Source: Brachymonas sp.
Lineage (GTDB): Bacteria; Pseudomonadota; Gammaproteobacteria; Burkholderiales; Burkholderiaceae_C
Reading direction: 5' to 3'
Assembly (NCBI GenBank): GCA_030538335.1
Contig: JAUNUE010000014.1
Coordinates: forward strand, 1-18,253
Length of the DNA stretch: 18,253 nt
Below the pieces are notes generated by a model. That model saw only the letters and a list, made by a program, of their open reading frames with translations, was not told where the DNA came from and searched no databases. A program made the position numbers and the translations under genes. Shown here one piece after another: positions 2,601-18,253 of the stretch; the first letter of the stretch is position 1, and every line of letters begins with the position of its first letter.

Positions 2601-2648
2601 TGTTTACTCCTTGCAGTTGGCGCGGTGCATCGCACCCGCTCTTCACTC

Positions 2649-2675
2649 AAAAAACCCGCGCTGCCGCAGCGCGGG
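2649..2675 (-). terminator. Rho-independent terminator-like hairpin between tpsB and tpsA (9-bp GC stem CCCGCGCUG/CAGCGCGGG, 3-nt loop, then U6 on the minus strand)
   Basis: Plus strand reads aaaaaa-cccgcgctg-ccg-cagcgcggg. On the minus-strand transcript the hairpin is followed by UUUUUUGAG. It lies 17 nt downstream of the tpsB stop and ~50 nt upstream of the tpsA RBS. Confidence 0.5.
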
Positions 2676-2691
2676 CACGTTGATAAAACCG

Positions 2692-4407: not shown

Positions 4408-4825
4408 TGCGAAATATCGAAAACTGTGGGAAAAGTCGCATTTTTTTCTTATCTTGTGTAAATTTGATGAAATGCCGTGGTGATTCTTTACCTGATTTCC
4501 TTCAGGGAGTTCCCGTTCGCTTCCCGATTGCGGGCATTTTGTCGCGCTCCTTTCCGGGCAGCATCCGTATCGCATCGGGCTTTGATGACATCAAACGCCA
4601 AGTGACTGAACTGCTGGTGTATGAGGTGCAGGTAAGGGCAGAACATTGAACGCTGCGCCATCGCTGGCCTTTTCTTGCGTGAAGTTGCTGGCAGGGTCGT
4701 TGCCGAGCGGCGGGGCGGGCACGCAGTGGCAAAATGGTGCCGATTCAGGTGGTGGCAGGGCTGGCCATTCTGGAGCAACAGAACAATCCGCACTGACCGT
4801 GCAGCATTCTCTCGCGAGGCCCACG

Positions 4826-7800
4826 ATGCGCAAGATCAACTCCATCCTCATCGCCAACCGTTCTGAAATTGCCATCCGCGTGATGCGCGCTGCATCCGAG
4901 ATGCACATCCGTACCGTGGGCATTTACGCTGCGCAAGACCGGCTGGCGCTGCACCGCTTCAAGGCCGACGAGAGCTATCTGGTGGGCGAGGGCAAGCGCC
5001 CGCTGGAGGCGTATCTCGACATCCACGACATTTTGCGGATTGCCCACGATGCCAGGGTCGATGCCATCCACCCCGGTTACGGTTTCCTCGCCGAAAACCC
5101 CGATTTTGCACAGGCCGTGATCGACTCGAACATGCTGTGGGTTGGCCCCCGGCCCGAGGTGATGCGCACGCTGGGCAACAAGGTCTCGGCGCGCGAAGCG
5201 GCTGTGGCCGCGGGCGTGCCGGTGGTGCCCGCCAGCCCGCCCTTGCCCTACGATGTGGAAGGCTGCCTGGCTGCTGCGCGCGCCATCGGCTACCCGGTCA
5301 TGCTCAAGGCCTCGTGGGGCGGCGGTGGCCGTGGCATGCGTGTGATCGAGAACGATGCCGAATTGCCTGCCGCCATCGAAGCTGCACGCCGCGAAGCCAA
5401 GGCCGCGTTTGGCAACGACGAGTTGTATTTTGAAAAACTGGTGCGCCGCGCGCGCCATGTGGAGGTGCAGATCCTGGGCGACCTGCACGACCAGGCCGTG
5501 CATCTGTACGAGCGCGATTGCACGGTGCAACGGCGCAACCAGAAGGTGGTGGAGCGCGCCCCCGCGCCCTACCTCAGCAACGCGCAGCGCACCGAGCTGT
5601 GCCAGAGCGCCTTGCAACTGATGCAGGCAGTGGGCTACAGCCACGCGGGCACGGTCGAATTTTTGATGGACGTGGACACGGGCCGGTTCTACTTCATGGA
5701 GGTCAACCCGCGCATTCAGGTGGAGCACACCGTGACCGAGGAAGTCACGGGCATCGACATCGTCAAGGCGCAGATCCGCATCAGCGAAGGCGCGCACATC
5801 GGCCAGCTTGAAGACGCGGTGGATGCCCAGGGTCAGGTGCTGCGCCGCGCCTCGGGCGTGCCTGCGCAGGCTGACATTCAGCTCAAGGGCCATGCGCTGC
5901 AATGCCGCATCACCACCGAAGACCCGGCCAACAATTTCTTGCCCGACTACGGGCGGCTCTCGGCTTACCGCAGCGCGGCTGGTTTTGGCGTGCGGCTCGA
6001 TGGTGGCACGGCTTATGGCGGCGCGGTGATCACGCCGTATTACGACTCGCTGCTGGTCAAGGTTACCACCTGGGCGCCGACACCGAAGGAAGCGATCGAC
6101 CGCATGTGGCGCTCGCTGCGCGAGTTCCGCATCCGTGGCGTGGCGTCGAACCTGCCGTTTCTGGAAAACCTCATCACCCACCCGGCATTTGCCACAGGTG
6201 AGTTGACCACGCGCTTCATCGACGAAAACCCCGAGCTGATGCACACCGCCACGCGCCGCGACCGCGCTACGCGCCTGCTGCGCTATGTGGCCGACGTGAG
6301 CGTGCACGGCCACCCCGAGATGAAGGGCCGCACGCTGCCCGCGCTGCCGCTGTCCAAACCGGTGTTGCCCAAGATCGGGCTGGATACCAACACCAGTTGC
6401 GCCATGCCCGGCACGCGCGACCGCTTGCGTGAACTGGGGCCACAGGGCTTTGCGCAATGGATGCGCGCGCAAAAACAGGTTCTGCTCACCGACACCTCCA
6501 TGCGCGATGCGCACCAGTCGCTGTTTGCCACGCGCATGCGCACGGCAGACATGCTGCCCATCGCGCCGTATTACGCCTACGAATTGCGGGAGTTGTTTTC
6601 GCTCGAATGCTGGGGCGGCGCGACCTTTGACGTGGCCCTGCGCTTTTTGAAAGAGGACCCGTGGGCGCGCCTGGCGCAACTGCGCGAACGCATCCCCAAC
6701 ATCCTGTTCCAGATGCTGCTGCGCGGCTCCAACGCGGTGGGCTACACCAACTACGCCGACAATGTGGTGCGCCATTTCGTGCAGCAGGCAGCAGGTGCGG
6801 GCATCGACCTGTTCCGCGTGTTCGACTCGCTCAACTGGGTCGAGAACATGCGCGTGGCGATGGACGCCGTGATCGAGGCCGGTGCGCTGTGCGAAGGCAG
6901 CGTGTGCTACACCGCCGACCTGTTTGACGAATCGCGACCCAAATACGGCCTGAAATACTACGTCGGCATTGCCAAGCAGTTGCAGGCGGCGGGCGCGCAC
7001 ATCATTGGCCTCAAAGACATGGCGGGCGTCTGCAAGCCACGCTCGGCAGCGGCACTGGTCAAGGCGCTGAAAGAAGAAACCGGGCTGCCCGTGCACTTCC
7101 ACACGCACGATACCTCGGGCATTGCAGCCTCCTCCGTACTCGCTGCGGTAGAGGCCGGTTGCGATGCGGTCGATGGTGCCATGGGCGCCTTGAGTGGCCT
7201 GACTTCACAGCCCAACCTCGCGAGCATTGCCGCCGCGCTGGAAGGCACCGAGCGCGACCCCGGCGTGCCGCTGTCGGCCATGCACGAAGCCAGCATGTAC
7301 TGGGAGGGCGTGCGCCGCTACTACGCACCGTTCGAGAGCGAATTCCGCGCCGGCACCGCCGATGTGTACCGCCACGAAATGCCCGGTGGCCAATACACCA
7401 ACTTGCGCGAACAGGCGCGCGCGCTGCGGCTGGAACACCGCTGGACCGAAGTCTCGCAAGCCTACGCCGACGTGAACAAATTGTTTGGCGACATCGTCAA
7501 GGTCACGCCCACCTCCAAGGTCGTGGGCGACCTGGCGCTGCTCATGGTGGCCAACGACCTCACCGCTGCAGACGTGGCCAACCCCGACCGCGAAATACCT
7601 TTTCCTGAATCGGTGGTGTCGCTGTTCAAGGGCGAGCTGGGCTTTCCGCCCGATGGCTTTCCCGAAGCGTTGTCGCGCAAGGTGCTCAAGGCCGACCCGC
7701 CCGCGCCCTACCGCCCTGGCGAGCGCATTGCGCCTGTTGATCTGGAAGCCACACGTGCCGAAGCCGAAGCGCTGTGCAACGCCAAACTCGACGACCGGCA

Positions 7801-8344
7801 ACTGGCCTCGTACCTGATGTACCCCAAGGTCACGCAAAACTACTTCGAGCATTACAACAACTACGGCGACACTTCGGTGCTGCCCACGCCCGCCTTTTTC
7901 TACGGCCTGCGCCAGCAGCAAGACGAAATCGCCGTGAGTATTGACGCGGGCAAAACCCTGCTCATCAGCCTGCAATCGGTGCAGCCCGATCACGAAGCGC
8001 AGGAACACAAGGTGCAGTTTGAACTCAACGGCCAGTCGCGCATGGTGCACGTGCCCATGCGCAGCGTCGAAGGAGAGGGCAAGGCCCGCAGCGCCCAGAA
8101 GCGTCCCAAGGCCGAAACCGGCAACATCCAGCACCTGGCCGCGCCCATGGCCGGTACCATCGTCACCGTCGCTGTCAAACCGGGGCAAAAGGTCAAGGCG
8201 GGCGACCCCATCCTCGCCGTGGAAGCCATGAAAATGGAAACCCACCTCAGCGCCGAACGCGACGCCGAAGTCGAGCAGGTGCTGGTGCAGGCCGGCGACC
8301 AGATCGACGCCAAGGATTTGCTGGTGGTGTTCAAGGCGTTATGA
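4826..8344 (+). CDS. pyc: pyruvate carboxylase (biotin carboxylase + carboxyltransferase + biotinyl domains), 1172 aa
   Basis: The N-terminus MRKINSILIANRSEIAIRVMRAA matches the biotin-carboxylase start. Carboxyltransferase motifs are present (ECWGGATFDVALRFLKEDPWARL, HFHTHDTSGIA). A C-terminal biotinyl domain carries the AMKMETH biotinylation motif. GAGG lies 7-10 nt upstream of the ATG at 4826. The in-frame upstream extension to 4646 has no stop but no homology. Confidence 0.92.
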   Translation: MRKINSILIANRSEIAIRVMRAASEMHIRTVGIYAAQDRLALHRFKADESYLVGEGKRPLEAYLDIHDILRIAHDARVDAIHPGYGFLAENPDFAQAVIDSNMLWVGPRPEVMRTLGNKVSAREAAVAAGVPVVPASPPLPYDVEGCLAAARAIGYPVMLKASWGGGGRGMRVIENDAELPAAIEAARREAKAAFGNDELYFEKLVRRARHVEVQILGDLHDQAVHLYERDCTVQRRNQKVVERAPAPYLSNAQRTELCQSALQLMQAVGYSHAGTVEFLMDVDTGRFYFMEVNPRIQVEHTVTEEVTGIDIVKAQIRISEGAHIGQLEDAVDAQGQVLRRASGVPAQADIQLKGHALQCRITTEDPANNFLPDYGRLSAYRSAAGFGVRLDGGTAYGGAVITPYYDSLLVKVTTWAPTPKEAIDRMWRSLREFRIRGVASNLPFLENLITHPAFATGELTTRFIDENPELMHTATRRDRATRLLRYVADVSVHGHPEMKGRTLPALPLSKPVLPKIGLDTNTSCAMPGTRDRLRELGPQGFAQWMRAQKQVLLTDTSMRDAHQSLFATRMRTADMLPIAPYYAYELRELFSLECWGGATFDVALRFLKEDPWARLAQLRERIPNILFQMLLRGSNAVGYTNYADNVVRHFVQQAAGAGIDLFRVFDSLNWVENMRVAMDAVIEAGALCEGSVCYTADLFDESRPKYGLKYYVGIAKQLQAAGAHIIGLKDMAGVCKPRSAAALVKALKEETGLPVHFHTHDTSGIAASSVLAAVEAGCDAVDGAMGALSGLTSQPNLASIAAALEGTERDPGVPLSAMHEASMYWEGVRRYYAPFESEFRAGTADVYRHEMPGGQYTNLREQARALRLEHRWTEVSQAYADVNKLFGDIVKVTPTSKVVGDLALLMVANDLTAADVANPDREIPFPESVVSLFKGELGFPPDGFPEALSRKVLKADPPAPYRPGERIAPVDLEATRAEAEALCNAKLDDRQLASYLMYPKVTQNYFEHYNNYGDTSVLPTPAFFYGLRQQQDEIAVSIDAGKTLLISLQSVQPDHEAQEHKVQFELNGQSRMVHVPMRSVEGEGKARSAQKRPKAETGNIQHLAAPMAGTIVTVAVKPGQKVKAGDPILAVEAMKMETHLSAERDAEVEQVLVQAGDQIDAKDLLVVFKAL

Positions 8345-8594
8345 ATCACCTTGCATCACCATAGGGCAGAACCTCCGAAGGAGATTCTGCTGAATGGATA
8401 CGCATGCCATCACCAAAACGGTTTGATCTCCTTTGTAACTATGTCCCAGAGGATGGACAGCAGACTCCAACGCATAGGTGCAATCAACCACCGCCATGTG
8501 TCGGAATCGCCTTCAGCGGTTCCAACTTGCACGGATTGAACATCAGGTAGTCGCCATCCTCCCGCAGCAGGAACCCAGCATCCGTTCGGGCTGA

Positions 8595-8635
8595 GCCTGT
8601 CGAAGCCCTGTCAACCTTTTGTCCTTTCGACAGGC
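8595..8635. repeat. Inverted repeat (10-bp arms GCCTGTCGAA / TTCGACAGGC, 21-nt spacer) embedded in three to four direct CCTGTC hexamers
   Basis: Read directly from the sequence. It sits in the 400-bp pyc-rtcB intergenic region, ~70 nt upstream of the bidirectional terminator. Confidence 0.6.
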
Positions 8636-8697
8636 CTGTCATCAGCAAAGTCGAATGGCTCAGGGCAAACGATTTTTGAACGATGCATGGTCGCAAT

Positions 8698-8737
8698 AAA
8701 AAAGCCCCTGCATTGCTGCAGGGGCTTGGGGTTTTCA
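8698..8737. terminator. Bidirectional intrinsic terminator (9-bp stem GCCCCUGCA/UGCAGGGGC, loop UUGC; A6 on one side, UUGGGGUUUU on the other)
   Basis: Minus-strand reading gives the hairpin then UUUUUU, 8 nt after the rtcB stop at 8745. Plus-strand reading gives the hairpin then a U-rich tail. Confidence 0.65.
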
Positions 8738-8744
8738 CAAACGG

Positions 8745-9968
8745 TCAGCCTTTCACGCACACCACCTGCTTCAGGGTGTACACCACCTCCACCAGATCAG
8801 CCTGTGCGGCCATGACGGCGTCGATGTCCTTGTAGGCCATCGGTATTTCGTCAATCACGCCTGCGTCCTTGCGGCATTCCACGCCTTCGGTGGCGCGCAT
8901 CTGGTCGGCCACGGTGTAGCGCTTTTTGGCGGCGGTGCGGCTCATCACGCGACCGGCGCCGTGTGAGCAGCTTTCGAACGACTCGGGGTTGCCCTTGCCG
9001 CGCACGATGTAGCTGCGCGCACCCATGCTGCCGGGGATGATGCCCAGCTCGCCCGCCTTGGCGCTCACCGCGCCCTTGCGCGTGACAAATACCTCTTCAC
9101 CAAAGTGCGTTTCGCGCTGCACGTAGTTGTGGTGGCAGTTCACCGCTTCTACATGCGTTTCAAAAGGCTTGGTGATCACGCTGCGCAGGGCGGCGATCAC
9201 GCGCTGCATCATCACGGCGCGGTTGGCGGCGGCAAACTTCTGTGCCCAGCCCACGGCCTGCACGTAATCGCCAAAGTACTGGCTGCCTTCTTCAAAGTAG
9301 GCCAGATCCTTGTCGGGCAGGTGCACGTTGTTGCGCTCGGCGTCTTTTTTGGCCAGTTCGATGAACTGGGTGCCAATGGCGTTGCCCACGCCACGCGAGC
9401 CGCTGTGCAGCATGACCCACACCGCCTGCGCTTCATCCAGACAAACCTCAATGAAGTGGTTGCCGGTGCCCAGCGTGCCCATGTGGCGGTAGTTGTTGGT
9501 GTTTTTCAGACGCGGGTATTTTTCGCAAATCTGCGCAAACTCATCGACTAGCTTGGACCAGGCCGCATCCGCCTCGGTGGGCGGTTGCTCCCACGAACCC
9601 TTGTCGCGCCCGGTTCTGCGCGGCGTCAGCCCGTGCGGCACGGCCTTTTCAATGGCCACGCGCAACAGAGCCAGGTTGTCGGGCAGGTCGCGGGCAGTCA
9701 GCGTGGTCTTGCACGCCATCATGCCGCAGCCAATGTCCACCCCCACCGCTGCGGGGATGATGGCCTTGAACGTGGGAATGACCGAACCCACCGTGGCCCC
9801 GATGCCGTAGTGCACATCGGGCATGGCGGCCACGTGCTTGAAGACGATGGGCAGGCGCGCCACGTTCTCCAGTTGTTTCTGCGCTTCGGCCTCTACAGGT
9901 ACCCCGCGTGTCCACATCTTGATCGGCACGGCGTTTTCTGCGTCTTTTTGAATGTAGTTTTTGTCCAT
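8745..9968 (-). CDS. rtcB: RNA-splicing ligase RtcB (3'-phosphate/5'-OH RNA ligase), 407 aa
   Basis: MDKNYIQKDAENAVPIKMWTRGVPVEA...MPDVHYGIGATVGSVIPT...NCHHNYV...CSHGAGRVMSR...QVVCVKG is near-colinear with E. coli RtcB, including the metal and GMP-His motifs. The start is chosen at the ATG at 9968 (MDKNY), which matches the family N-terminus. The ORF-track extension MQMPDGCFIKRII runs through a hairpin. Confidence 0.93.
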   Translation of the reverse strand: MDKNYIQKDAENAVPIKMWTRGVPVEAEAQKQLENVARLPIVFKHVAAMPDVHYGIGATVGSVIPTFKAIIPAAVGVDIGCGMMACKTTLTARDLPDNLALLRVAIEKAVPHGLTPRRTGRDKGSWEQPPTEADAAWSKLVDEFAQICEKYPRLKNTNNYRHMGTLGTGNHFIEVCLDEAQAVWVMLHSGSRGVGNAIGTQFIELAKKDAERNNVHLPDKDLAYFEEGSQYFGDYVQAVGWAQKFAAANRAVMMQRVIAALRSVITKPFETHVEAVNCHHNYVQRETHFGEEVFVTRKGAVSAKAGELGIIPGSMGARSYIVRGKGNPESFESCSHGAGRVMSRTAAKKRYTVADQMRATEGVECRKDAGVIDEIPMAYKDIDAVMAAQADLVEVVYTLKQVVCVKG

Positions 9969-9981
9969 GATGATTCTCTTT

Positions 9982-10019
9982 ATAAAACAACCGTCAGGCA
10001 TCTGCATGCCTGACGGTTG
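9982..10019 (-). terminator. Perfect 14-bp hairpin (CAACCGUCAGGCAU-GCAG-AUGCCUGACGGUUG) followed by UUUUAUAAAG, between the SPFH stop and the rtcB start
   Basis: The stem, 9988-10001 / 10006-10019, begins 7 nt after the SPFH stop. The U-tract and the rtcB SD/start follow within 14 nt. This is a terminator or attenuator-like structure inside an apparent operon. Confidence 0.5.
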
Positions 10020-10026
10020 AAAGGCC

Positions 10027-11163
10027 TCAACGCAGCTTCACCAGCCCGTTGAGCACTTGGTCCAAGCCACCGAATACGGAGATCTTGTCGATGCGCTCGG
10101 CCACGCGCTCCAGTGTTTCAAGCTCCTTCAGACGCAGGGCGATGGGGTTGTCTTCCATCACCTTGGCGGTGTTGAGCAAGGAGCGCGAGGCCGCGGTTTC
10201 TTCGCGGCGGCGGATCACGTTAGCCTGCGCGGCTTTTTCGGCTTCGACCACCTGGGCGAGGATGGTTTTCATCTCGCCCGGCAGCACGATGTCTTTCACG
10301 CCCACGCCGTCAAGCGCCAAGCCATAGCTGGCGAGTTTGCCTTTGACCCAGGTTGTGACGACTTCGTCGATCACGCCCTTGTTCTCCAGCAACTCGTCCA
10401 GTGTGCGGGTACCAACGGCAGCACGCAAGCCAAACTGCAGCTCGCGGTAGAGGTGCTCAGCCGGTTTTTGTAATTGCGTAAAAGCCTTGAGCACGTCGAT
10501 GTAGCGCCAGTTGGCGGCCAGGTTCAGGCGCAAAGCGACCTTGTCGCGGGTCAGGATTTCCTGGCCCGACACTTCCAGCGTTTGCAGGCGCATGTCGACC
10601 AGCTCCACCACCACGTTGCGGTTGAACTTCCAGAAGGCGTAGTTACCCGGTGCTAGCAAGCGCTCGACCTTGCCGTCGATCCACAGCACACCGGTGCCAT
10701 GCTCTGACACCTGTACCGCGAGCACACCTGACAGACCAGCCAACGGGCGTTGGCGCAACTGGGTTTGCGTCAGACGCTGCAGCAAGGCGGCAGGCACTTC
10801 GGCCGAAGTGCTGATGTCGATCACTTCCACGCGCACATCAACCAGCCCTTTCCAGTACAGGCGGCGGGTGGATGGCGCCATGATCTCAACCAGCAAGCCG
10901 TTTTCATAGCGCAAACCCACCTGGGTTTCGCTGAGATCGACGCGCACAAACTCCTGGTTGACAACCTCAGGCTCCTTGGCCATCAGGTAATCGGCCAGTT
11001 CGTGCGTGAAAGCGGTTTGCTCCAGTGCAAAGGTCTGTACCTTCAGGCGGTCAAACCCGCTGAACAGCCAGTGGCGACCTGGCTTGAGCACGCGCTCAAA
11101 ATCGCCATTGCGCAGCAACAGGCCACGCTCGTTTTTTTTCACAGTCACACGCTTGAATTTCAT
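10027..11163 (-). CDS. SPFH / band-7 (stomatin-prohibitin-flotillin-HflKC) domain protein, 378 aa, with a tandem duplication of the SPFH N-terminal beta-subdomain and no N-terminal TM helix
   Basis: The C-terminal half (...LEVSGQEILTRDKVALRLNLAANWRYIDVLKAF...DIVLPGEMKTILAQVVEAEKAAQANVIRRREETAASRSLLNTAKVMEDNPIALRLKELETLERVAE...) is a classic slipin/SPFH core plus coiled-coil. Residues ~4-45 (KRVTVKKNERGLLLRNGDFERVLKPGRHWLF) and ~170-215 (GVLWIDGKVERLLAPGNYAFWKFNRNVV) both resemble the SPFH N-terminal strand region. The start is the ATG at 11163, preceded by AAGGAG at 7-nt spacing. Confidence 0.8.
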   Translation of the reverse strand: MKFKRVTVKKNERGLLLRNGDFERVLKPGRHWLFSGFDRLKVQTFALEQTAFTHELADYLMAKEPEVVNQEFVRVDLSETQVGLRYENGLLVEIMAPSTRRLYWKGLVDVRVEVIDISTSAEVPAALLQRLTQTQLRQRPLAGLSGVLAVQVSEHGTGVLWIDGKVERLLAPGNYAFWKFNRNVVVELVDMRLQTLEVSGQEILTRDKVALRLNLAANWRYIDVLKAFTQLQKPAEHLYRELQFGLRAAVGTRTLDELLENKGVIDEVVTTWVKGKLASYGLALDGVGVKDIVLPGEMKTILAQVVEAEKAAQANVIRRREETAASRSLLNTAKVMEDNPIALRLKELETLERVAERIDKISVFGGLDQVLNGLVKLR

Positions 11164-11458
11164 GATGATTCTCCTTGTTGTTGCGTGCAGATAAAGGGTG
11201 CCGTTACAGGGGTGGTGGCGGATTGCCCGTGCTGCCGGATGGGCCTTGTGGCGGGCAGTGCCACGTACAGCCGCATCAAGTGCATGCTGTGCGCGCATTG
11301 CTGGTCACAGGCGCAGCCGGTGCGGGCGGACAATGCAAGCCGCCACCGCTGACAGGCCCTGCCTGCCCGCGCCTTCTGCACACGCAGCCAGGGCCTTGTG
11401 AACAGAATTTGCGGGCATGCACAGCCTGCGTTCGGCGGGGTGGTCTTTCGACCGTTCT

Positions 11459-11535
11459 TGGCTTATGGAGCCGGATTCGAACCGGCGACAGACGAAAGGT
11501 TGATTCGTTGCTCTACCAAACTGAGCCATCCATAA
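11459..11535 (-). tRNA. tRNA-like gene t1 (77 nt). Perfect cloverleaf (7-bp acceptor UUAUGGA/UCCAUAA, D, anticodon and T arms all fully paired, encoded CCA) but anticodon loop UCAACCU has C33 and nominal anticodon AAC; isotype undetermined
   Basis: Minus strand reads TTATGGA-TG-GCTC-AGTTTGGTA-GAGC-A-ACGAA-TCAACCT-TTCGT-CTGTC-GCCGG-TTCGAAT-CCGGC-TCCATAA-G-CCA. Confidence 0.6.
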
Positions 11536-11536
11536 A

Positions 11537-11564
11537 TGGTCGACGTTTCAGGACTCGAACCTGA
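11537..11564 (-). other. tRNA 3'-half fragment (T arm UCAGG-UUCGAGU-CCUGA + acceptor 3' strand AACGUCG + A + CCA), 2 nt from the t1 5' end; no matching 5' acceptor/D arm upstream
   Basis: Minus strand reads GGTGTCAGGTTCGAGTCCTGAAACGTCGACCA. The required 5' strand CGRCGTT is not found within 100 nt upstream. The upstream 170 nt contain GC-rich hairpins instead. Confidence 0.45.
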
Positions 11565-11737
11565 CACCTTGCGGTGCAACCGATGAACATCGCTATCAAC
11601 TGCTTTCAGCAACGCGGCATGTGCAAGCCGCACTGGCCCCATGCCAGCAGCCGCACACCGACGGGGCGGGCTTGCGCCCCAACCCCTGCTCTGTCAGCGT
11701 TTGCTTGCCACAGAAGATTTGTTGGGCGCCTGAAAAT

Positions 11738-12301
11738 TCAATTCAGGCGCGAATTTTTGGGCAGCCTCGCGGCCAGCCACTCGTGCACATCTGCGCGGAT
11801 GTTGCGCCCCTTGAGCAGAAAATCCTCAAAGCGGCTTGGCACATAGTGCAGGTACAGCAAGGGCATGCGCGCTTCGTCGGGCGTGCGTGCGGCCTTGCGC
11901 CCATTGCACCCGGCACAGGCAGCAACAAGGTTCATCCAGCACCAGGCGCCACCGCGCGACTCGGGCAGGATGTGCTCGCACTGCAAATCCTGCGCGGCAA
12001 ACACATCACCGCAATAGGCACAGGTATGCCGGTCGCGGCGCAGCAGCTTGTCTTTGGTCACGCTGGGGGTCACATCAAACAGATTGCACTTGGCCGCGCC
12101 GCGCACGGCGATGATGGGGTGCACTTCAAGCACTGAATCGCGCTGGAGTGGAACGTTGAAACCCCCACGCAGCACGGCCAGCGGGCCCTGGCCCAATTGC
12201 CAGGCCACACGATCCGTGGCGTAGTGCAGGGCGGCCTGTTCCACCGCAATCCAGGCCTGCGGTGTACCGTGCACATCAAGTTGCAAGACCTGGGTAAACA
12301 T
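11738..12301 (-). CDS. HNH-family nuclease, 187 aa
   Basis: C-terminal HNH/zinc-finger motif ...HTCAYCGDVFAAQDLQCEHILPESRGGAWCWMNLVAACAGCNGRKAARTPDEARMP... with high GC3. AAGGAG lies 6 nt upstream of the ATG at 12301. The start is 36 nt downstream of tRNA-like gene t3. The stop codon sits in the loop of a 9-bp hairpin (11726-11750). Confidence 0.8.
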   Translation of the reverse strand: MFTQVLQLDVHGTPQAWIAVEQAALHYATDRVAWQLGQGPLAVLRGGFNVPLQRDSVLEVHPIIAVRGAAKCNLFDVTPSVTKDKLLRRDRHTCAYCGDVFAAQDLQCEHILPESRGGAWCWMNLVAACAGCNGRKAARTPDEARMPLLYLHYVPSRFEDFLLKGRNIRADVHEWLAARLPKNSRLN

Positions 12302-12336
12302 GCTGTTCTCCTTTCAATAAAACCATGAAACCTCGC

Positions 12337-12412
12337 TGGTGCGGGCATGTCCGGCTGAACGCCAAACCTGCCGGTTAAAAGCCGGACGCTCTACCAGTTG
12401 AGCTATACCCGC
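12337..12412 (-). tRNA. tRNA-Lys(UUU)-like t3 (76 nt) with a degenerate T arm (2 of 5 stem pairs mismatched; T loop UUCAGCC lacks A58 and C61); possible pseudo-tRNA
   Basis: GCGGGTA-TA-GCTC-AACTGGTA-GAGC-G-TCCGG-CTTTTAA-CCGGC-AGGTT-TGGCG-TTCAGCC-GGACA-TGCCCGC-A-CCA. The acceptor, D and anticodon arms are good; the 27:43 pair is a U-C mismatch. Confidence 0.55.
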
Positions 12413-12432
12413 AAAATATGACAAAAGCAATT

Positions 12433-12507
12433 GGGGGTGACTGCTGGGAATCGAACCCAAATCGCTGGAATCACAAACCAGGGTCCTGCCATTGAACGAC
12501 AGCCACC
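12433..12507 (-). tRNA. tRNA-His(GUG), with G-1:C73 and an 8-bp acceptor
   Basis: G(-1)-GTGGCTG-TC-GTTC-AATGGCA-GGAC-C-CTGGT-TTGTGAT-TCCAG-CGAT-TTGGG-TTCGATT-CCCAG-CAGTCAC-C. The anticodon arm is near-identical to E. coli tRNA-His. The 31:39 pair is U-U. The 3' tail is CCC rather than CCA. Confidence 0.8.
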
Positions 12508-12528
12508 CCGAATGGCTTTTGTCTGAAC

Positions 12529-12604
12529 TGGCTGCATCGACAGGCCTCGAACCTGTGACATCCGCGTTAACAGCGCGGTGCTCTACCCACTGAGCTACGA
12601 TGCA
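12529..12604 (-). tRNA. tRNA-Asn(GUU)
   Basis: TGCATCG-TA-GCTC-AGTGGGTA-GAGC-A-CCGCG-CTGTTAA-CGCGG-ATGTC-ACAGG-TTCGAGG-CCTGT-CGATGCA-G-CCA. Canonical cloverleaf with a U1-A72 first pair. Confidence 0.85.
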
Positions 12605-12609
12605 AAAAT

Positions 12610-12692
12610 TGGTGCCTCAGCCGGGATTCGAACCCAGAAAAGCCCTGCTTCTAAGGCAGGCAGGTGTACCAATTTCCATTAGCCACCGAGGC
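12610..12692 (-). tRNA. tRNA-like t6 with anticodon UAG (Leu-type), 83 nt. It has no class-II long variable arm, and ~6 extra nt between the D region and the anticodon stem (tandem CCTGCC CTGCC)
   Basis: GCCTCGG-TG-[GCTAATGGAAATTGGTACACCTG]-CCTGC-CTTAGAA-GCAGG-GCTTTT-CTGGG-TTCGAAT-CCCGG-CTGAGGC-A-CCA. The acceptor, anticodon and T arms pair well. The D region is 23 nt instead of ≤20. Confidence 0.5.
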
Positions 12693-12697
12693 ACAAC

Positions 12698-12773
12698 TGG
12701 CACACCGTACCGGATTCGAACCGGTGGCTTTCCACTAGACAGGCGGACACTCTGACCACTGAGTTAACGGCGC
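12698..12773 (-). tRNA. tRNA-Asp(GUC); U37 rather than a purine 3' of the anticodon
   Basis: GCGCCGT-TA-ACTC-AGTGGTCA-GAGT-G-TCCGC-CTGTCTA-GTGGA-AAGCC-ACCGG-TTCGAAT-CCGGT-ACGGTGT-G-CCA. Two G-U pairs in the acceptor stem. Confidence 0.8.
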
Positions 12774-12782
12774 AAAAAAATC

Positions 12783-12857
12783 TGGTCGTCCAAGGTGGGT
12801 ACGATCCACCGATCAACGCCTTATGAGAGCGCTGCTCTACCGCTGAGCTATTGGACG
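12783..12857 (-). tRNA. tRNA-Met(CAU)-type t8 with an atypical T loop AUCGUAC (A54 and U58 swapped relative to the canonical T54/A58) and a C1-G72 first pair
   Basis: CGTCCAA-TA-GCTC-AGCGGTA-GAGC-A-GCGCT-CTCATAA-GGCGT-TGATC-GGTGG-ATCGTAC-CCACC-TTGGACG-A-CCA. Confidence 0.65.
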
Positions 12858-12866
12858 TTGTGTACT

Positions 12867-12942
12867 TGGCATCCCAGGAAGAATTCGAACCCTCAACCTT
12901 CGGATTTGGAGTCCGTTGCGCTGCCGATTGCGCCACTGAGAT
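12867..12942 (-). tRNA. tRNA-Trp(CCA) (A1-U72 as in E. coli tRNA-Trp; G53-U61 and A27/A43 irregularities)
   Basis: ATCTCAG-TG-GCGC-AATCGGCA-GCGC-A-ACGGA-CTCCAAA-TCCGA-AGGTT-GAGGG-TTCGAAT-TCTTC-CTGGGAT-G-CCA. Confidence 0.75.
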
Positions 12943-12959
12943 AAATCCATGCTTTTTTC

Positions 12960-13036
12960 TGGTTGCAGCGGGTGGATTTGAACCACCGATCTCAGGCGTA
13001 TGAAACCTGTGAGGACAACCACTCCTCTACGCTGCT
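12960..13036 (-). tRNA. tRNA-Met(CAU), initiator-like t10 (mismatched 1:72 pair A/A, A11:U24, T loop UUCAAAU, discriminator A as in tRNA-fMet; only two G-C pairs at the base of the anticodon stem)
   Basis: AGCAGCG-TA-GAGG-AGTGGTTGT-CCTC-A-CAGGT-TTCATAC-GCCTG-AGATC-GGTGG-TTCAAAT-CCACC-CGCTGCA-A-CCA. Confidence 0.7.
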
Positions 13037-13257
13037 GAACTGGCATCGCGTAGGGGATTGCTCGCACGATGTGCTCGGCCTTCAGCCCGCACCTTTGGTG
13101 CGTCCAATGCGCGATGCGCATTGAGCGAACCCCTGTTGGCAAACTGAAAACCTGCTGTCCTGGCCATCTAGACGAACGCGACAAATAAAGGAATTTCCAT
13201 TTCGGCTGTGCCTGCACGCGAGAGATTCGCATCGGCGAATCCGGTGCACTCGCTGCA

Positions 13258-13281
13258 CCTGCCATGTGCGCACATGGCAGG
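13258..13281. repeat. 24-bp perfect palindrome CCTGCCATGTGCGCACATGGCAGG in non-coding DNA
   Basis: Read directly. Two overlapping opposite-strand ORFs translate it into similar peptides (LPCAHMAG), a palindrome artefact. Confidence 0.6.
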
Positions 13282-13507
13282 CACATCCCACCCCACCGTT
13301 CCCGCGGCAGCGCTTGGGTGGTATTGTGCAGACACACCCGAAATGGAGCATAAATACAAGGCATATCTACCGCCTTGCAACCATGCAACATCCCGAAAAT
13401 GTGAGTACGCCTGCGCCAGTGCGCAAGCGCCTCACGGCAACTTGTGAAAGAACATGGCTGCCAGCACGATCACTGCGCAGCGGTACAGGCCAAGCCTGCA
13501 AACCAAC

Positions 13508-13539
13508 AAAAAAGCCCGGTTTCCTTGCAGAAACCGGGC
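13508..13539 (-). terminator. Intrinsic terminator on the minus strand (10-bp stem GCCCGGUUUC/GAAACCGGGC, 6-nt loop, then U6)
   Basis: Plus strand reads aaaaaa-gcccggtttc-cttgca-gaaaccgggc. It is 30 nt downstream of the stop of the small minus-strand ORF at 13570-13809. Confidence 0.55.
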
Positions 13540-13569
13540 CTCTAGATACAGAGAAGTCGAGAGTAACGC

Positions 13570-13809
13570 TCAGCTGTGCGTACCCTCCCCGGTTGCGCGG
13601 CAATCCTCATGCTTGAACGATGTCCAGCCCCCATTGCACGCAGGCGCCATGAGCCGATAGCCCGCCAACGCGCGCGCAGCCAAGCCCATGCCGGGTTGCG
13701 GTATGCGGTTGATGGAAGCGCTCAGTCGTATCACGGATGATCTCGATGCAAAAAGGTTGAACATGGGAATACTTGCAAAGGTAAAGGAGGCTGCAGGCAG
13801 CTCCTTCAC
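13570..13809 (-). CDS. Hypothetical small protein (79 aa, GTG start), divergent from the HTH regulator gene and followed by a terminator
   Basis: The ORF ends 30 nt before a strong terminator and starts ~110 bp from the divergent HTH gene. It has no recognisable domain. GC3 is intermediate and lower than host genes. Weak call. Confidence 0.2.
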   Translation of the reverse strand: MKELPAASFTFASIPMFNLFASRSSVIRLSASINRIPQPGMGLAARALAGYRLMAPACNGGWTSFKHEDCRATGEGTHS

Positions 13810-13828
13810 TTCTGGAACAAGATGTAGT

Positions 13829-13843
13829 GTAAAGAAACTTTAC
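13829..13843. promoter_or_regulatory. 15-bp palindrome GTAAAGAAACTTTAC (6-3-6) in the AT-rich divergent promoter region; candidate operator for the adjacent HTH protein
   Basis: Located 78 bp upstream of the HTH gene start, in the most AT-rich stretch of the window (13740-13880). Confidence 0.3.
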
Positions 13844-13920
13844 TGTTCTTTCAAGATTCGGCGATAATCTTTTTTGCAAGCGTTGCTTCAACAACACACA
13901 CGCCAAAACATCTTCTGCCC

Positions 13921-14313
13921 ATGCCCCAGCCCGCACCGCCACAACAACCCAACCTGTCTGTACTGCGCCGACAGAACCTGCTGGCGCTGCTGCAGGAGTT
14001 TGCCGAAAACATGGTTTCGGCAGGCGCGGTCACCAAAGGCATCGAGCAGGCTTTTGCCGAAAAAATCCAGGTCTCGCCCAGCATGCTCAGCCAGATGAAG
14101 GCAGGCCGCCCCATCGGCAACAAGATCGCGCGGCAAATCGAAGTCTTGTGCAAACGCCCTGCGGGCTGGCTGGATACACAGCACCCCGACCAGAAACCTT
14201 CGCCCGCTGAAGAAGCCTTTGTGACGCTTGCCAGAGAGGTATGGCGGTCGCAAAACGCCAAAGGAAAAAGGGAACTGCAGCAATATGTGCAGTCCCGCAT
14301 GGCGAAACCCTGA
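13921..14313 (+). CDS. XRE/Cro-CI-type helix-turn-helix DNA-binding protein (130 aa), phage-repressor-like
   Basis: HTH signature ...GIEQAFAEKIQVSPSMLSQMKAGRPIGNKIARQIEVLCKRPAGWLD... with host-like GC3. The N-terminal 30 residues are Pro/Gln-rich. An alternative start is the ATG at 14011 (MVSAGAV...). Confidence 0.65.
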   Translation: MPQPAPPQQPNLSVLRRQNLLALLQEFAENMVSAGAVTKGIEQAFAEKIQVSPSMLSQMKAGRPIGNKIARQIEVLCKRPAGWLDTQHPDQKPSPAEEAFVTLAREVWRSQNAKGKRELQQYVQSRMAKP

Positions 14314-14376
14314 AAGAGGTACACCTCTGTCTTGCGCCGCGCATCAGTGCGGGTGGATTCAGGAGAGTTAAAAATC

Positions 14377-14467
14377 TGGCGGAAAGAGAGGGATTCGAAC
14401 CCTCGATACGGAAGAACCGTATACCGGATTTCGAGTCCGGCGCATTCGACCACTCTGCCATCTTTCC
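14377..14467 (-). tRNA. tRNA-Ser(CGA), 91 nt, class II
   Basis: GGAAAGATGGCAGAGTGGTCGAATGCGCCGGACTCGAAATCCGGTATACGGTTCTTCCGTATCGAGGGTTCGAATCCCTCTCTTTCCGCCA. It has a long variable arm and a GC-rich host-like acceptor. It lies 90 bp downstream of serS on the same strand. Confidence 0.92.
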
Positions 14468-14556
14468 GCGGGTGTGCTTAGCACTGCCATGCGGTAGTCG
14501 GCGCATGGCAAGCTGTGGATTGTAGCTTTTTCTGGGGTGCGTTCGTCCGATTCGAA

Positions 14557-16924
<2,368 letters not shown>

Positions 16925-16928
<4 letters not shown>

Positions 16929-17380
16929 AAGATACCGATCACTTCAACTTCAAAGACCAGCGCCTGATCCGACAAGGGGTGGTTGAAATCCAGCAGCACG
17001 GCCTTCTCGCCAAGCTGTACGACGGTGGCTGCCAGCCGGGCTTCGCCGTCGGGCGTGGGAAACTGCAGTACCTCGCCCACATGGTACTGCGCCTCGGGGT
17101 CGCCAAATTCCTTCAGCGCGCTGTGGCTGAGCCATTGCCGCTTGCCGGGGTCAGCCTCGCCAAACACGCTGCCCGCAGGCAGTTCAAACGCCTCGCGGTG
17201 GCCTTCGTGCAGGCCGATCAGCTTTTCTTCAAGCGGCGCGGCCAGCGAGCCGCTGCCCATCTGCAGCGTGGCGGGCTTGCCGCCAAAGGTGTTGATGACA
17301 TCGCCGTTGGCACCAGCCAGCCGGTAATGCAGGGTCAGAAAGGAATCGGGCTGAATGGTGGGGGTGGCGGTTCCGGACAT
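16925..17380 (-). CDS. fkpB: FKBP-type peptidyl-prolyl cis-trans isomerase (FkpB/SlpA-like), 151 aa
   Basis: [22 protein letters not shown]...[22 protein letters not shown] matches FkpB end to end. The start is chosen at the ATG at 17380. The track's GTG at 17437 adds 19 residues with no counterpart in the family. The fkpB-ispH order is conserved as in the E. coli ileS-lspA-fkpB-ispH cluster. Confidence 0.8.
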
Positions 17381-17504
17381 GGCTACAGGCAGCGCCAGCC
17401 ATTGGCTGGCAGAAAAATAAGGTATTGTAGAAGGCACCGCACGCCCGCGCGAATGGCCACAGGAACCAGCGGGCTTTACCCCCGGTTTTCATTGCGCGCA
17501 TGAC

Positions 17505-18206
17505 ATGAAACTCAGCCATCTGCCTGCCCAGACCCTGCCCCGTGAAAAGCTGCTGGCGCGCGGCGCTGCCAGCCTTTCCGATGCGGAACTGCTCGCCATT
17601 ATTCTGCGCACCGGCATGGCAGGCAAAAATGTGCTGCAGATGGCGCAAGAGGTGCTGGATACCTGTGGCGGGCTGGCAGGTTTGCTGCATGCCGATGCGG
17701 TGCAGCTCAAGCGCATCAAGGGCCTGGGCGGCAACGCCAAGCGCGCCGAACTGCTGGCCGTGATGGAACTCGCCCGCCGCGCCGTGGCACAGCAGATGCA
17801 AAAGCGCACCAACCTCGGCAGCCCTGAACTTGCCATGCAGTATGTGCAGATGCAGTTGGGCCAGCAGGCGCAAGAGTGCTTTGCCGTGCTGTTTCTCGAC
17901 ACGCACCATCGGCTGATCTGTATGGAGACCTTGTTCACCGGCACCTTGAATCAGGCCAGCGTCTATCCGCGCGAAGTGGCAGCCCGCGCCTTGCACCACC
18001 AGGCCGCCAGTGTGATGCTGGCGCACAACCACCCCAGCGGGCAGGTGGAGCCTTCAGCCGCAGACCGCGCCTTGACGCAGCGCCTGCAGCAGGCCTTGGG
18101 CTTGCTGGATATTGCCGTGCTCGACCATTTGATTGTGGCGCCCGGCCAGGCGGTGTCGATGGCGCAGCAGGGGTATATGCCCACCACGACAATGGCAAAC
18201 AAGTAA
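17505..18206 (+). CDS. radC: RadC-like JAB/MPN domain protein (UPF0758), 233 aa
   Basis: N-terminal HhH region ([14 protein letters not shown]) and JAMM motif HNHPSG...S..D. It is divergent from fkpB. Confidence 0.85.
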
Positions 18207-18210
18207 CCAT

Positions 18211-18238
18211 CCCCCGGCAAAGCCGGGGGCTTTCGTTA
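18211..18238 (+). terminator. Intrinsic terminator after radC (CCCCCGGC-AAA-GCCGGGGG then CUUUCGUU)
   Basis: An 8-bp GC stem 5 nt after the radC stop, followed by a U-rich tail. Confidence 0.5.
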
Positions 18239-18253
18239 TGTGAGCCGCTCAAA

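Follow-up and report, generated by a model that had tools for sequence, protein, structure and literature searches.

What is a tight cluster of transfer RNA (tRNA) genes, several of them departing from the usual rules of tRNA sequence, doing together with an HNH nuclease gene just ahead of the genes for an SPFH/Band-7 protein and the RNA ligase RtcB? The locus in question lies in an 18,253-nucleotide (nt) stretch of DNA from Brachymonas sp. (contig JAUNUE010000014.1 of assembly GCA_030538335.1, positions 1 to 18,253), to which we will refer as the window, and a first reading of the letters (the original prediction) had put it forward as a candidate mobile-element or phage-derived module serving tRNA supply and repair. 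Broadly, the locus consists of a set of spare and somewhat unusual tRNA genes, eroded in part, and a conserved HNH gene, joined on one strand to an RNA-repair operon; both of its halves, the tRNA array with its HNH gene and the SPFH-RtcB repair operon, are of already described kinds, and no new type of element is involved. We consider it reasonably probable that it is a chromosomal copy of a module, widespread in Burkholderiales, uniting the array and HNH gene with a tRNA-like RNA (b7a), SPFH and RtcB, and working as a stress-induced supply and repair unit. The identities of the parts are much firmer than the mechanism, in which we infer a stress-induced co-expression of the spare or variant tRNAs with the RtcB unit.

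The minus strand from 13036 to 11459 holds eight tRNA genes, an HNH gene of 187 codons and two tRNA-like elements. The compact one-strand array with an embedded HNH gene that had been proposed is borne out by ARAGORN, Rfam and Pfam; among the ten tRNA or tRNA-like elements counted at that time, eight stand as tRNA genes, and the other two, a nominal tRNA with anticodon AAC and a stand-alone tRNA 3' half, are parts of a leader RNA described below. ARAGORN calls nine tRNA or tRNA-like genes within this span, all nine of which encode CCA, plus a tRNA-Ser(CGA) further upstream, and eight of the nine match the Rfam tRNA model at 35.5-68.7 bits (gathering score 29; E 2e-13 to 3e-4). Nine matches to the tRNA model in 1.6 kb are far beyond chance. 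Array members are separated by 5-21 nt, and 35 nt lie between the last tRNA and the HNH start codon. In the order of transcription, the array comprises the following genes:

12960-13036, minus strand: initiator-like tRNA(CAU), called by ARAGORN; Rfam 53.3 bits
12867-12942, minus strand: tRNA-Trp(CCA), canonical, with A1-U72 and G73, called by ARAGORN; Rfam 56.9 bits
12783-12857, minus strand: tRNA(CAU) with the T-loop pair swapped to A54/U58 (AUCGUAC); Rfam 60.1 bits
12698-12773, minus strand: tRNA-Asp(GUC) with U37, G1.U72 and G3.U70; Rfam 59.3 bits
12610-12692, minus strand: tRNA-Leu(UAG), 83 nt, with a short variable arm, assigned by homology; Rfam 35.5 bits
12529-12604, minus strand: tRNA-Asn(GUU), canonical, called by ARAGORN; Rfam 68.7 bits
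12432-12507, minus strand: tRNA-His(GUG) with an encoded G-1 and a U31/U39 mismatch, called by ARAGORN; Rfam 49.1 bits
12337-12412, minus strand: tRNA-Lys(UUU) with a disrupted T arm, called by ARAGORN; Rfam 28.9 bits, just below the gathering score of 29
11738-12301, minus strand: array-associated HNH protein, 187 amino acids (aa); Pfam HNH_5 (2.4e-14), HNH and HNH_4

Array, HNH, SPFH and rtcB genes are all co-oriented, and a scan for terminator-like sites found none between the array and SPFH, as had been supposed; on this strand such sites fall at the unit boundaries (13543-13510, 10019-9988 and 8727-8702).

Are the odd bases of these tRNAs accidents of this genome? The original prediction had treated them as idiosyncratic. 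Alignment with about 600 array tRNAs indicates instead that most of the unusual features are traits conserved across arrays, the others being real decay. The initiator-like gene (13036-12960) has the A/A mismatch at 1:72 that had been pointed out, plus A11:U24 and the pairs G29-C41, G30-C40 and U31.G39, and mismatches at 1:72 (U/U or A/A) are common among its relatives in other arrays too. The exchanged T-loop identities of the second tRNA(CAU), likewise recognized earlier, are shared by at least 15 arrays, in which the T loop reads ATCGT[A/G]C, and by the tRNA-Ile(GAU) of arrays; this gene, with 90-92% identity to its counterparts in Polaromonas arrays and a compensated C1-G72 pair in the window copy, is probably a tRNA-Ile2, to judge from its C4-G69 and C5-G68 pairs, which we take to be the TilS determinants. 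The His, Asn, Asp and Trp genes had been described as canonical; this holds for Asn and Trp and fails for tRNA-Asp, owing to its U37 and two G.U pairs. A pyrimidine at position 37 occurs in 26 of the 29 distinct array tRNA-Asp sequences, the G.U pairs being specific to the window.

The reading of the UAG gene as a leucine-type species with an insertion and without the long variable arm is upheld by homology, since the gene, whose variable region has 5 nt and whose D loop is longer by about 5-6 nt, can be aligned with members of a class-I-like tRNA-Leu(YAG) family that is conserved in several of the compared loci, which are given here as L followed by a number (L019, L027, L030, L048, L055, L066, L070, L084); the Lys-CUU call of ARAGORN for 12692-12610 is wrong on the same alignment. 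The T arm of tRNA-Lys(UUU) is degenerate, as stated before, and intact in the orthologs (TGGCG/TTCGATC/CGCCA), the window copy at 12412-12337 being a probable pseudogene. C33 occurs in some Gly, His and Val genes of other arrays. Further deviations were seen in those arrays: tRNA-Gly(GCC), the first gene of many of them, has A32 and C33 in 5/8 distinct sequences (e.g., L013 3147, L024 3517, L072 2346), C33 being one more conserved exception to the near-universal U33; L069 has, at 4279, a suppressor-like tRNA whose anticodon UUA is read as Stop; an 87-nt tRNA-Gly-like gene has an 11-nt insertion after the anticodon (L028 3571, L031 3507); and a gene at L070 4699 has an "anticodon" of 4 nt.

The array also reaches beyond the span first considered, with two tRNA remnants and a conserved RNA upstream of 13036:

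13344-13396, minus strand: tRNA-Gly remnant, first gene of the array, with an internal deletion of ~24 nt, recognized by alignment with the intact tRNA-Gly(UCC) of L005, L009 and L020
13196-13345, minus strand: conserved, structured spacer RNA of ~150 nt after tRNA-Gly, defined by comparative structure
13096-13182, minus strand: tRNA-Glu(UUC) remnant, recognized by alignment with 21 array tRNA-Glu genes

Neither remnant is called by ARAGORN or Rfam; the 5' two-thirds of the tRNA-Glu remnant are intact (13182-13126) and its 3' part has been replaced. Together they indicate that the array was formerly longer. The array is eroding in this genome, as evidenced by both remnants, the broken tRNA-Lys and the insertion in tRNA-Leu. 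This could be taken to mean that a horizontally acquired array is now mostly junk, a decaying relic in which selection still acts only on the HNH gene and the b7a-SPFH-RtcB part, and mutational debris accounts for some of the odd bases. The reduction of tRNA-Gly and tRNA-Glu to remnants, a tRNA-Lys below the gathering score, a tRNA-Leu with a D-loop insertion and 35.5 bits only, the two window-specific G.U pairs of tRNA-Asp and an array of eight genes, short against up to 22-27 in relatives, would all fit. Nonetheless, six members score 49-69 bits with intact cloverleaves and CCA, the compensated C1-G72 of the tRNA(CAU) indicates that selection on its stem continues, the principal oddities recur in dozens of arrays, and spacing and co-orientation have been preserved; a mere relic is in our opinion rather unlikely.

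The spacer RNA directly follows tRNA-Gly, the first array gene, in at least 23 arrays, including that of the Methylibium PM1 plasmid (other examples are L005 3408-3585 and L085 about 2281-2419). RNAalifold gives it 35 pairs, 15 of them with compensatory changes, in a covarying closing stem and internal hairpins, and it has no Rfam match at E<=1.

What, then, are the two elements which resemble tRNAs but lie beyond the HNH gene? They belong to the second half of the locus, composed as follows:

11738-11163, minus strand: non-coding stretch of 574 nt between HNH and SPFH, holding both tRNA-like elements
11428-11701, minus strand: structured leader RNA of the SPFH-rtcB genes, whole element, ~275 nt, defined comparatively
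11537-11592, minus strand: mini tRNA-like element, 56 nt, from minimum free energy folds
11459-11535, minus strand: b7a-tRNA (Band-7-associated tRNA-like RNA), called by ARAGORN; 51.5 bits with the Rfam tRNA model and 85.6 bits with the covariance model R1
10027-11163, minus strand: SPFH/Band-7 protein, 378 aa; Pfam Band_7 1.7e-28
9988-10019, minus strand: hairpin of 14 base pairs (bp) with a T-rich tail (TTTTAT...) between SPFH and rtcB, from the terminator-like scan and the sequence
8745-9968, minus strand: RtcB RNA ligase, 407 aa; Pfam RtcB 3.4e-131
8702-8727, minus strand: terminator-like hairpin closing the operon after rtcB, with an 11-bp stem and then a T run, from the same scan

The intergenic region between HNH and SPFH is conserved in 16 loci. 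By RNAalifold and pair counting, 94.6% of the cells of the leader structure are paired, against 36-46% in slid controls, and 25 pairs show compensatory changes; none of 500 shuffles reaches the observed values. Folding of the single sequence is not better than that of shuffles (z -0.99), and the structure is to be regarded as a comparative prediction, in which the closing helices are tentative for varying on one side only. In order, the leader would consist of a 5' domain with a long covarying hairpin, the mini tRNA-like element, a full cloverleaf, a GGUCGAAAGACC hairpin and the tentative closing stem. The sequence taken earlier for a stand-alone tRNA 3' half is indeed present, at 11592-11537, although not as a free-standing half: it closes into the mini element, with a 7-bp acceptor stem, a GNRA-capped hairpin, a T arm and ACCA. 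Its three-way junction is the same in most loci, with a different acceptor-stem sequence in each, and ARAGORN calls its equivalent an odd "???" tRNA in L100, L101 and L108.

In 34 loci the cloverleaf was assigned to b7a, on the strength of its R1 score (51.7-96.6 bits) and of a distance of a few hundred nt to the SPFH gene downstream. Most of these, distant metagenomic ones included, score 65-97 bits versus at most 64 bits for array tRNAs; the most divergent (L013, L094, L108, L109) score 52-61 bits, overlapping the range of array tRNAs. The C33 noted in the nominal tRNA with anticodon AAC is confirmed on the ARAGORN cloverleaf (loop UCAACCU, with C37 as well); its standing as a tRNA is not. 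Across the family, the anticodon loops are extremely variable in length (4-8 nt), in triplet (at least 12 different ones) and in the bases at 33 (C, G or A) and 37 (often a pyrimidine), the acceptor stem has 4-5 covarying bp, CCA is mostly absent and the body of the cloverleaf is highly conserved. The element at 11535-11459 thus falls outside canonical elongator tRNAs, as characterized by U33, a purine at 37, a fixed anticodon, a 7-bp acceptor stem and CCA. By sequence comparison, "tRNA-Val(AAC)" and the "3' half" are parts of a conserved SPFH-rtcB leader and not tRNAs, and the cloverleaf corresponds to the predicted band-7-associated tRNA of RtcB repair systems. It would not decode, because its anticodon loop is unconstrained. 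An identity as YrlA was rejected for the leader (26.6 bits versus a gathering score of 69). Rfam searches of the leader, the spacer RNA and the conserved element upstream of the array (gathering score; E<=1-5) returned only tRNA, the sub-threshold YrlA and microRNA or plastid noise. In several loci (L003, L030, L043, L051, L059, L073) a hairpin ACTGGAC...TCCAG, absent from the window, lies just 3' of b7a; it repeats the CTGGA of the 5' acceptor strand of b7a, with which its 3' arm could pair alternatively, suggesting a possible structural switch. In more distant metagenomic SPFH loci, b7a and arrays occur in rearranged orders, such as array-b7a-SPFH-HNH in L100.

The two protein genes of the operon lie 58 nt apart on the same strand, and their products are well conserved in related loci (SPFH 75-82% and RtcB 70-81% identical). 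Their starts were revised from 11298 to 11163 for SPFH and from 10007 to 9968 for rtcB, those of the ORF finder (open reading frames) being probably too far upstream: the revised lengths of 378 and 407 aa fit the homologs (378 aa is that of the called homolog in L003), and both genes then share a near-identical 16-nt context of ribosome-binding site and start, AAGGAGAATCATCATG, i.e., A(A/G)GAGAATCATCATG (11161-11176; 9966-9981). The hairpin between them (9988-10019), possibly an attenuator or a stabiliser, suggests differential expression of SPFH and rtcB. About 30 nt upstream of the SPFH start, a CTGTAACGGCACCCTTT block (11193-11209, minus strand) is kept in several loci and is a poor match to a sigma-54 promoter; such a promoter was rejected by eye, as the conserved CTGTAACGGCACC block has the wrong GG/GC spacing.

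Which role could then be assigned to the HNH protein? It is built of an N-terminal beta-rich domain, a zinc-ribbon HNH core and C-terminal helices, and its catalytic motif is present: His110, Asn124 and Asn133 are invariant, and the four Cys of CxxC...CxxC are invariant or nearly so (at least 90%). An AlphaFold2 (AF2) model was based on an alignment of 82 sequences, and in structure the protein comes closest to HNH domains that cut DNA (those of Cas9d, IscB and the Gme nicking endonuclease). With this DNA-nickase-type core, the protein probably acts on DNA rather than RNA, and its role could be array maintenance, array spread or something else. A tRNA-directed nuclease (toxin), for which the variant array tRNAs would be resistant substitutes in an addiction or immunity pair, is quite improbable in this sense. 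The HNH-tRNA adjacency is tight, the array tRNAs have conserved loop deviations, and the HNH core is like PtuB-type domains, PtuAB of retron Eco7 being known to deplete tRNA-Tyr (PMC11555353); yet direct tRNA cleavage was not demonstrated in that paper, the structural relatives cut DNA, and arrays differing in tRNA content fit poorly with one fixed target. The PtuB-type resemblance (1e-8, defence-system library PADLOC) is a generic similarity of the core, and the same library gave no match for SPFH, RtcB or the candidate regulator described below.

The distribution of the protein says more about the nature of the locus. It has 1065 database homologs, the best 120 of which are 72-77% identical over the whole length, and a scan of one genome per species found relatives, 70-78% identical over the full length, encoded in at least 534 genomes. 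The best 80 loci fetched from these genomes, on which the locus counts that follow are based, are nearly all from Burkholderiales (Variovorax, Polaromonas, Rhizobacter, Rubrivivax, Ideonella, Ottowia and others). A same-strand tRNA lies within 450 nt upstream of HNH in 71/80 loci, usually 26-68 nt away; the arrays comprise 0-22 genes of variable content; and RtcB and/or SPFH are encoded within 6 kb of HNH in 33 of the 80. The coupling of array and repair genes is thus frequent and not obligatory. One of these arrays, in Scleromatobacter (L001 8656-15823), abuts with its HNH gene on a series RtcR / Ro60-vWA / tRNA-like RNA / RtcB / RlaP / RtcA, so that the partners of the array-HNH unit include RtcB systems of more than one type. 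The known 27-tRNA array on the Methylibium PM1 megaplasmid ends with the same HNH (68% identity), and homologs are also found on megaplasmids of Variovorax and Polaromonas; on a plasmid of Variovorax SRS16, a 39-tRNA array embeds a 43%-identical homolog of a paralogous clade. In Nostoc, Arthrobacter and Mycobacterium, the similarity of the HNH genes found on array-bearing plasmids is confined to the HNH core. The array half would be a horizontally spread, supernumerary set with HNH as its last gene; it is of the same family as the Methylibium PM1 and Variovorax megaplasmid arrays and analogous to the cyanobacterial L-array trn operon. A decaying selfish endonuclease is disfavoured, because the HNH protein is as strongly conserved as RtcB or SPFH.

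The derivation from a phage or prophage, as an anti-defence tRNA module with a homing endonuclease after the manner of the T4 and T5 tRNA regions, towards which the original prediction had leaned, is here given up as most unlikely. Phages do harbour HNH genes together with tRNA clusters, anticodon-loop changes allow phage tRNAs to evade anticodon nucleases (PMC10264068), and jumbo phages encode weak full-length HNH homologs (35-40% identity). Against this, a blastn search of the array in 50,697 phage records gave only matches of the size of a single tRNA (at most 9% of the query) and generic in kind, the phage HNH homologs examined have no tRNAs nearby, the window holds no phage genes, and the HNH family is widespread in bacterial genomes, of at least 534 species, and in megaplasmids. 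Pfam scans of the window ORFs and a repeat search found no integrase, phage genes or flanking direct repeats (att).

Could the cluster be nothing more than ordinary housekeeping tRNA genes that lie by chance near HNH and rtcB? Its surroundings are ordinary, with serS and ispH located upstream of the module and the following genes in addition:

2692-4575, minus strand: two-partner secretion transporter of the ShlB/FhaC type
4646-8344, plus strand: pyruvate carboxylase
14377-14467, minus strand: tRNA-Ser(CGA), called by ARAGORN
17505-18206, plus strand: RadC

A chance cluster, to which we attach hardly any credence, would agree with a chromosomal position beside serS and tRNA-Ser, with protein genes of host-like GC content (0.59-0.62) and with the lack of integrase or att repeats in those searches. 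It would not explain that tRNA content differs widely between related genomes (0-22 genes), that serS, pyc and ispH are missing from the vicinity of all 80 related loci, that the array contains pseudogenes and non-universal bases, or that homologous megaplasmid arrays are reported to be largely redundant with chromosomal tRNAs (PMC7313664); on this point the original prediction, which had set the array apart from housekeeping genes, holds. Its argument from composition, on the other hand, does not. A host GC content of ~67% had been assumed, versus 0.607 in the window, and AU-rich acceptor stems of the array had been contrasted with GC-rich ones in tRNA-Ser(CGA), whereas the array stems range from 0.50 to 0.79 in GC content and tRNA-Ser (GC 0.55) has an AU-rich acceptor stem (GGAAAGA/UCUUUCC, 0.43). 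A foreign composition of the module is ruled out by these values. Between the 3' end of tRNA-Ser(CGA), a classic site of island insertion, and the start of the module lie 64 nt.

How might such a module be controlled? Further elements lie upstream of the first tRNA:

13505-13596, minus strand: conserved leader element ending in a strong intrinsic-terminator-like hairpin (13543-13510), with a 15-bp stem and then a T run
13826-13868, both strands: sigma-70-like hexamer pairs, divergent and overlapping, in the interval that separates the array from the regulator gene, from a consensus scan only
13921-14313, plus strand: CI-like helix-turn-helix (HTH) protein, 130 aa, divergent, from tblastn conservation

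A tblastn search recovers the 130-aa protein from 65 loci (47-81% identity), where its gene invariably borders the 5' edge of the array and is read from the other strand, and the DNA of this region is 69-76% conserved over 300-465 nt. It has no Pfam match and a weak match in the PDB to the HTH of phage repressor CI (7nkv, E 0.007), and is a candidate local repressor of the array operon. The hexamer pairs read TTGAAA-17-TACACT on the minus and TTTACT-18-GATAAT on the plus strand. About 130 nt separate the element at 13505-13596 from the first tRNA-Gly; it comes after the divergent promoter region and before the array, a position that it keeps in many loci. Its identity is 75-86% in L019, L020, L065, L068 and L072, it is aligned in L005, L006, L009 and L010, and it could be an attenuator or a small RNA.

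Taken together, a supply and repair unit of this kind might operate as follows. The regulator would normally keep the module silent, and the module would be transcribed as one unit upon damage to translation or tRNAs, as inflicted, for example, by toxin, colicin or contact-dependent inhibition (CDI) anticodon nucleases, by phage-defence tRNases or by ribosome-targeting antibiotics. RNase P and 3'-processing enzymes would release the tRNAs, all of them encoding CCA, which would then top up or buffer the damaged housekeeping pool; their deviations (pyrimidine 37 in Asp, A54/U58 in Ile, the short arm of Leu and, in some other arrays, C33) might make them poorer nuclease substrates. RtcB would reseal broken RNAs with 2',3'-cyclic-phosphate and 5'-OH ends, and SPFH together with the tRNA-mimicking leader would act as a cofactor or scaffold, as proposed for Rsr/Ro60 and YrlA in other RtcB operons, the conserved D/T "elbow" of b7a being its likely functional surface. 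The HNH protein would act, probably on DNA, in the maintenance or spread of the array.

Several points weigh against this proposal. U37 or A54/U58 could instead impair decoding; several members of the array are damaged in the window, and this copy may contribute little; 47/80 HNH or array loci are without RtcB or SPFH within 6 kb; and the sigma-70-like hexamers are not more numerous than in shuffles, which makes the promoter a weak prediction; the repressor role is a prediction too. A more specialized variant would see in the Burkholderiales arrays a dedicated, "hardened" backup set of tRNAs (pyrimidine 37 in Asp, A54/U58 in Ile, tRNA-Leu without the long arm, C33 in some Gly, His and Val) that escapes anticodon- or T-loop nucleases and is co-transcribed with the repair genes, the leader serving as a cis bait or sensor coupling tRNA damage to ligase expression, and the spacer RNA and the terminator-ended leader as further regulatory RNAs. 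We deem it a doubtful elaboration. The stress-induced supply and repair unit continues to be our preferred reading. Details that may be new within it are the deviations conserved among the tRNAs, the extended form of the leader, the spacer RNA and the CI-like regulator.

How does the locus compare with known systems? An association of Band-7, RtcB and a b7a-tRNA was predicted by Burroughs and Aravind (2016), as cited in bioRxiv 10.1101/312249, where the prediction of the b7a-tRNA is described as never validated. The window agrees with it in that RtcB adjoins Band-7/SPFH and a tRNA-like RNA lies just upstream of Band-7 (11535-8745); it departs from the description given in the citing paper in that the RNA is one module of a leader of ~275 nt, with a second mini tRNA-like element and a tentative closing stem, and in that the leader is fused downstream of a tRNA array and HNH gene. 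The loci gathered here also provide a large comparative data set for the b7a-tRNA, with its unconstrained anticodon loop and conserved body, and the calls "tRNA-Val(AAC)" and "tRNA-Lys(CUU)" at such loci are annotation errors. The RtcR-regulated operon rsr-yrlBA-rtcBA likewise has an RtcB accompanied by a tRNA-mimicking non-coding RNA; unlike it, the window, whose ORFs were scanned, is without Rsr/Ro60, the sigma-54 activator RtcR and the cyclase RtcA (all present in L001), and unlike YrlA, b7a keeps an anticodon arm. The phage T4 segB and T5 tRNA regions share a nuclease gene inside a tRNA cluster and the idea of spare or variant tRNAs set against tRNA-cleaving enzymes (PMC10264068, PMC11555353), and differ in their phage context, in a nuclease of the GIY-YIG type (SegB) instead of HNH, and in that the HNH is strongly conserved across genera, unlike typical selfish endonucleases. 

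The Burkholderiales megaplasmid arrays (Methylibium petroleiphilum PM1 RPME01; Variovorax pWDL1-2 and pRA8-2) are true homologs, with HNH proteins 65-69% identical over the full length, and the Variovorax plasmid arrays are largely redundant with chromosomal tRNAs (PMC7313664). As in the window, the PM1 array has HNH at its 3' end and the same spacer RNA after tRNA-Gly; it differs by its 27 tRNAs and by having no b7a-SPFH-RtcB after HNH. According to the definition attributed to Tran et al. (2016), a tRNA array unit has at least 20 tRNA genes and at least 2 tRNA genes per kb (PMC4758250). With eight array genes and two remnants, the window falls short in number, and with eight genes in 700 nt (12337-13036) it is dense enough; it is moreover orthologous to bona fide long arrays, given the HNH identity of 68% to PM1, the tRNA(CAU) identity of 90-92% to Polaromonas and the common spacer RNA.

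The closest functional parallel is that of Anabaena PCC 7120, whose trn array of 26 genes is silent until translation is impaired, 23/26 tRNAs then being aminoacylated, with the adjacent HNH gene and rtcB co-regulated (PMC8421152); the regulon of the repressor TrcR comprises trn, rtcB, all8564 (an HNH gene) and alr0740 (a slipin, or SPFH, gene) (PMC10272220). Dense same-strand tRNAs (supernumerary, in the window presumably so), horizontal spread and an HNH gene alongside are common to the L-arrays, the trn operon and the window (PMC8421152, PMC10272220, PMC4758250), as are an array under a repressor (in the window, a candidate) and the company of rtcB and slipin/SPFH, which in Anabaena belong to the same stress regulon (PMC10272220). 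The idea of a tRNA supply and repair island, as originally put forward, is backed in outline by these cyanobacterial experiments and by comparative genomics. L-arrays have 20-43 genes versus eight and remnants in the window, which is chromosomal; the Nostoc HNH protein matches that of the window only in the core (residues 79-148, 45.7% identity); and the candidate regulator is a CI-like HTH protein, whereas TrcR is of the ribbon-helix-helix (RHH) family. The conserved tRNA deviations might play a part in resisting or sensing tRNA-cleaving toxins, as might the leader of SPFH-rtcB and the 150-nt spacer RNA, two conserved elements that match nothing in Rfam. Finally, array, HNH, rtcB and slipin are tied in Anabaena only by shared regulation from separate loci, whereas here the same set is physically fused in one compact, co-oriented unit with its own candidate repressor, which makes cultivable relatives such as Variovorax, Polaromonas and Methylibium convenient for testing whether spare tRNAs and RNA repair are functionally linked.

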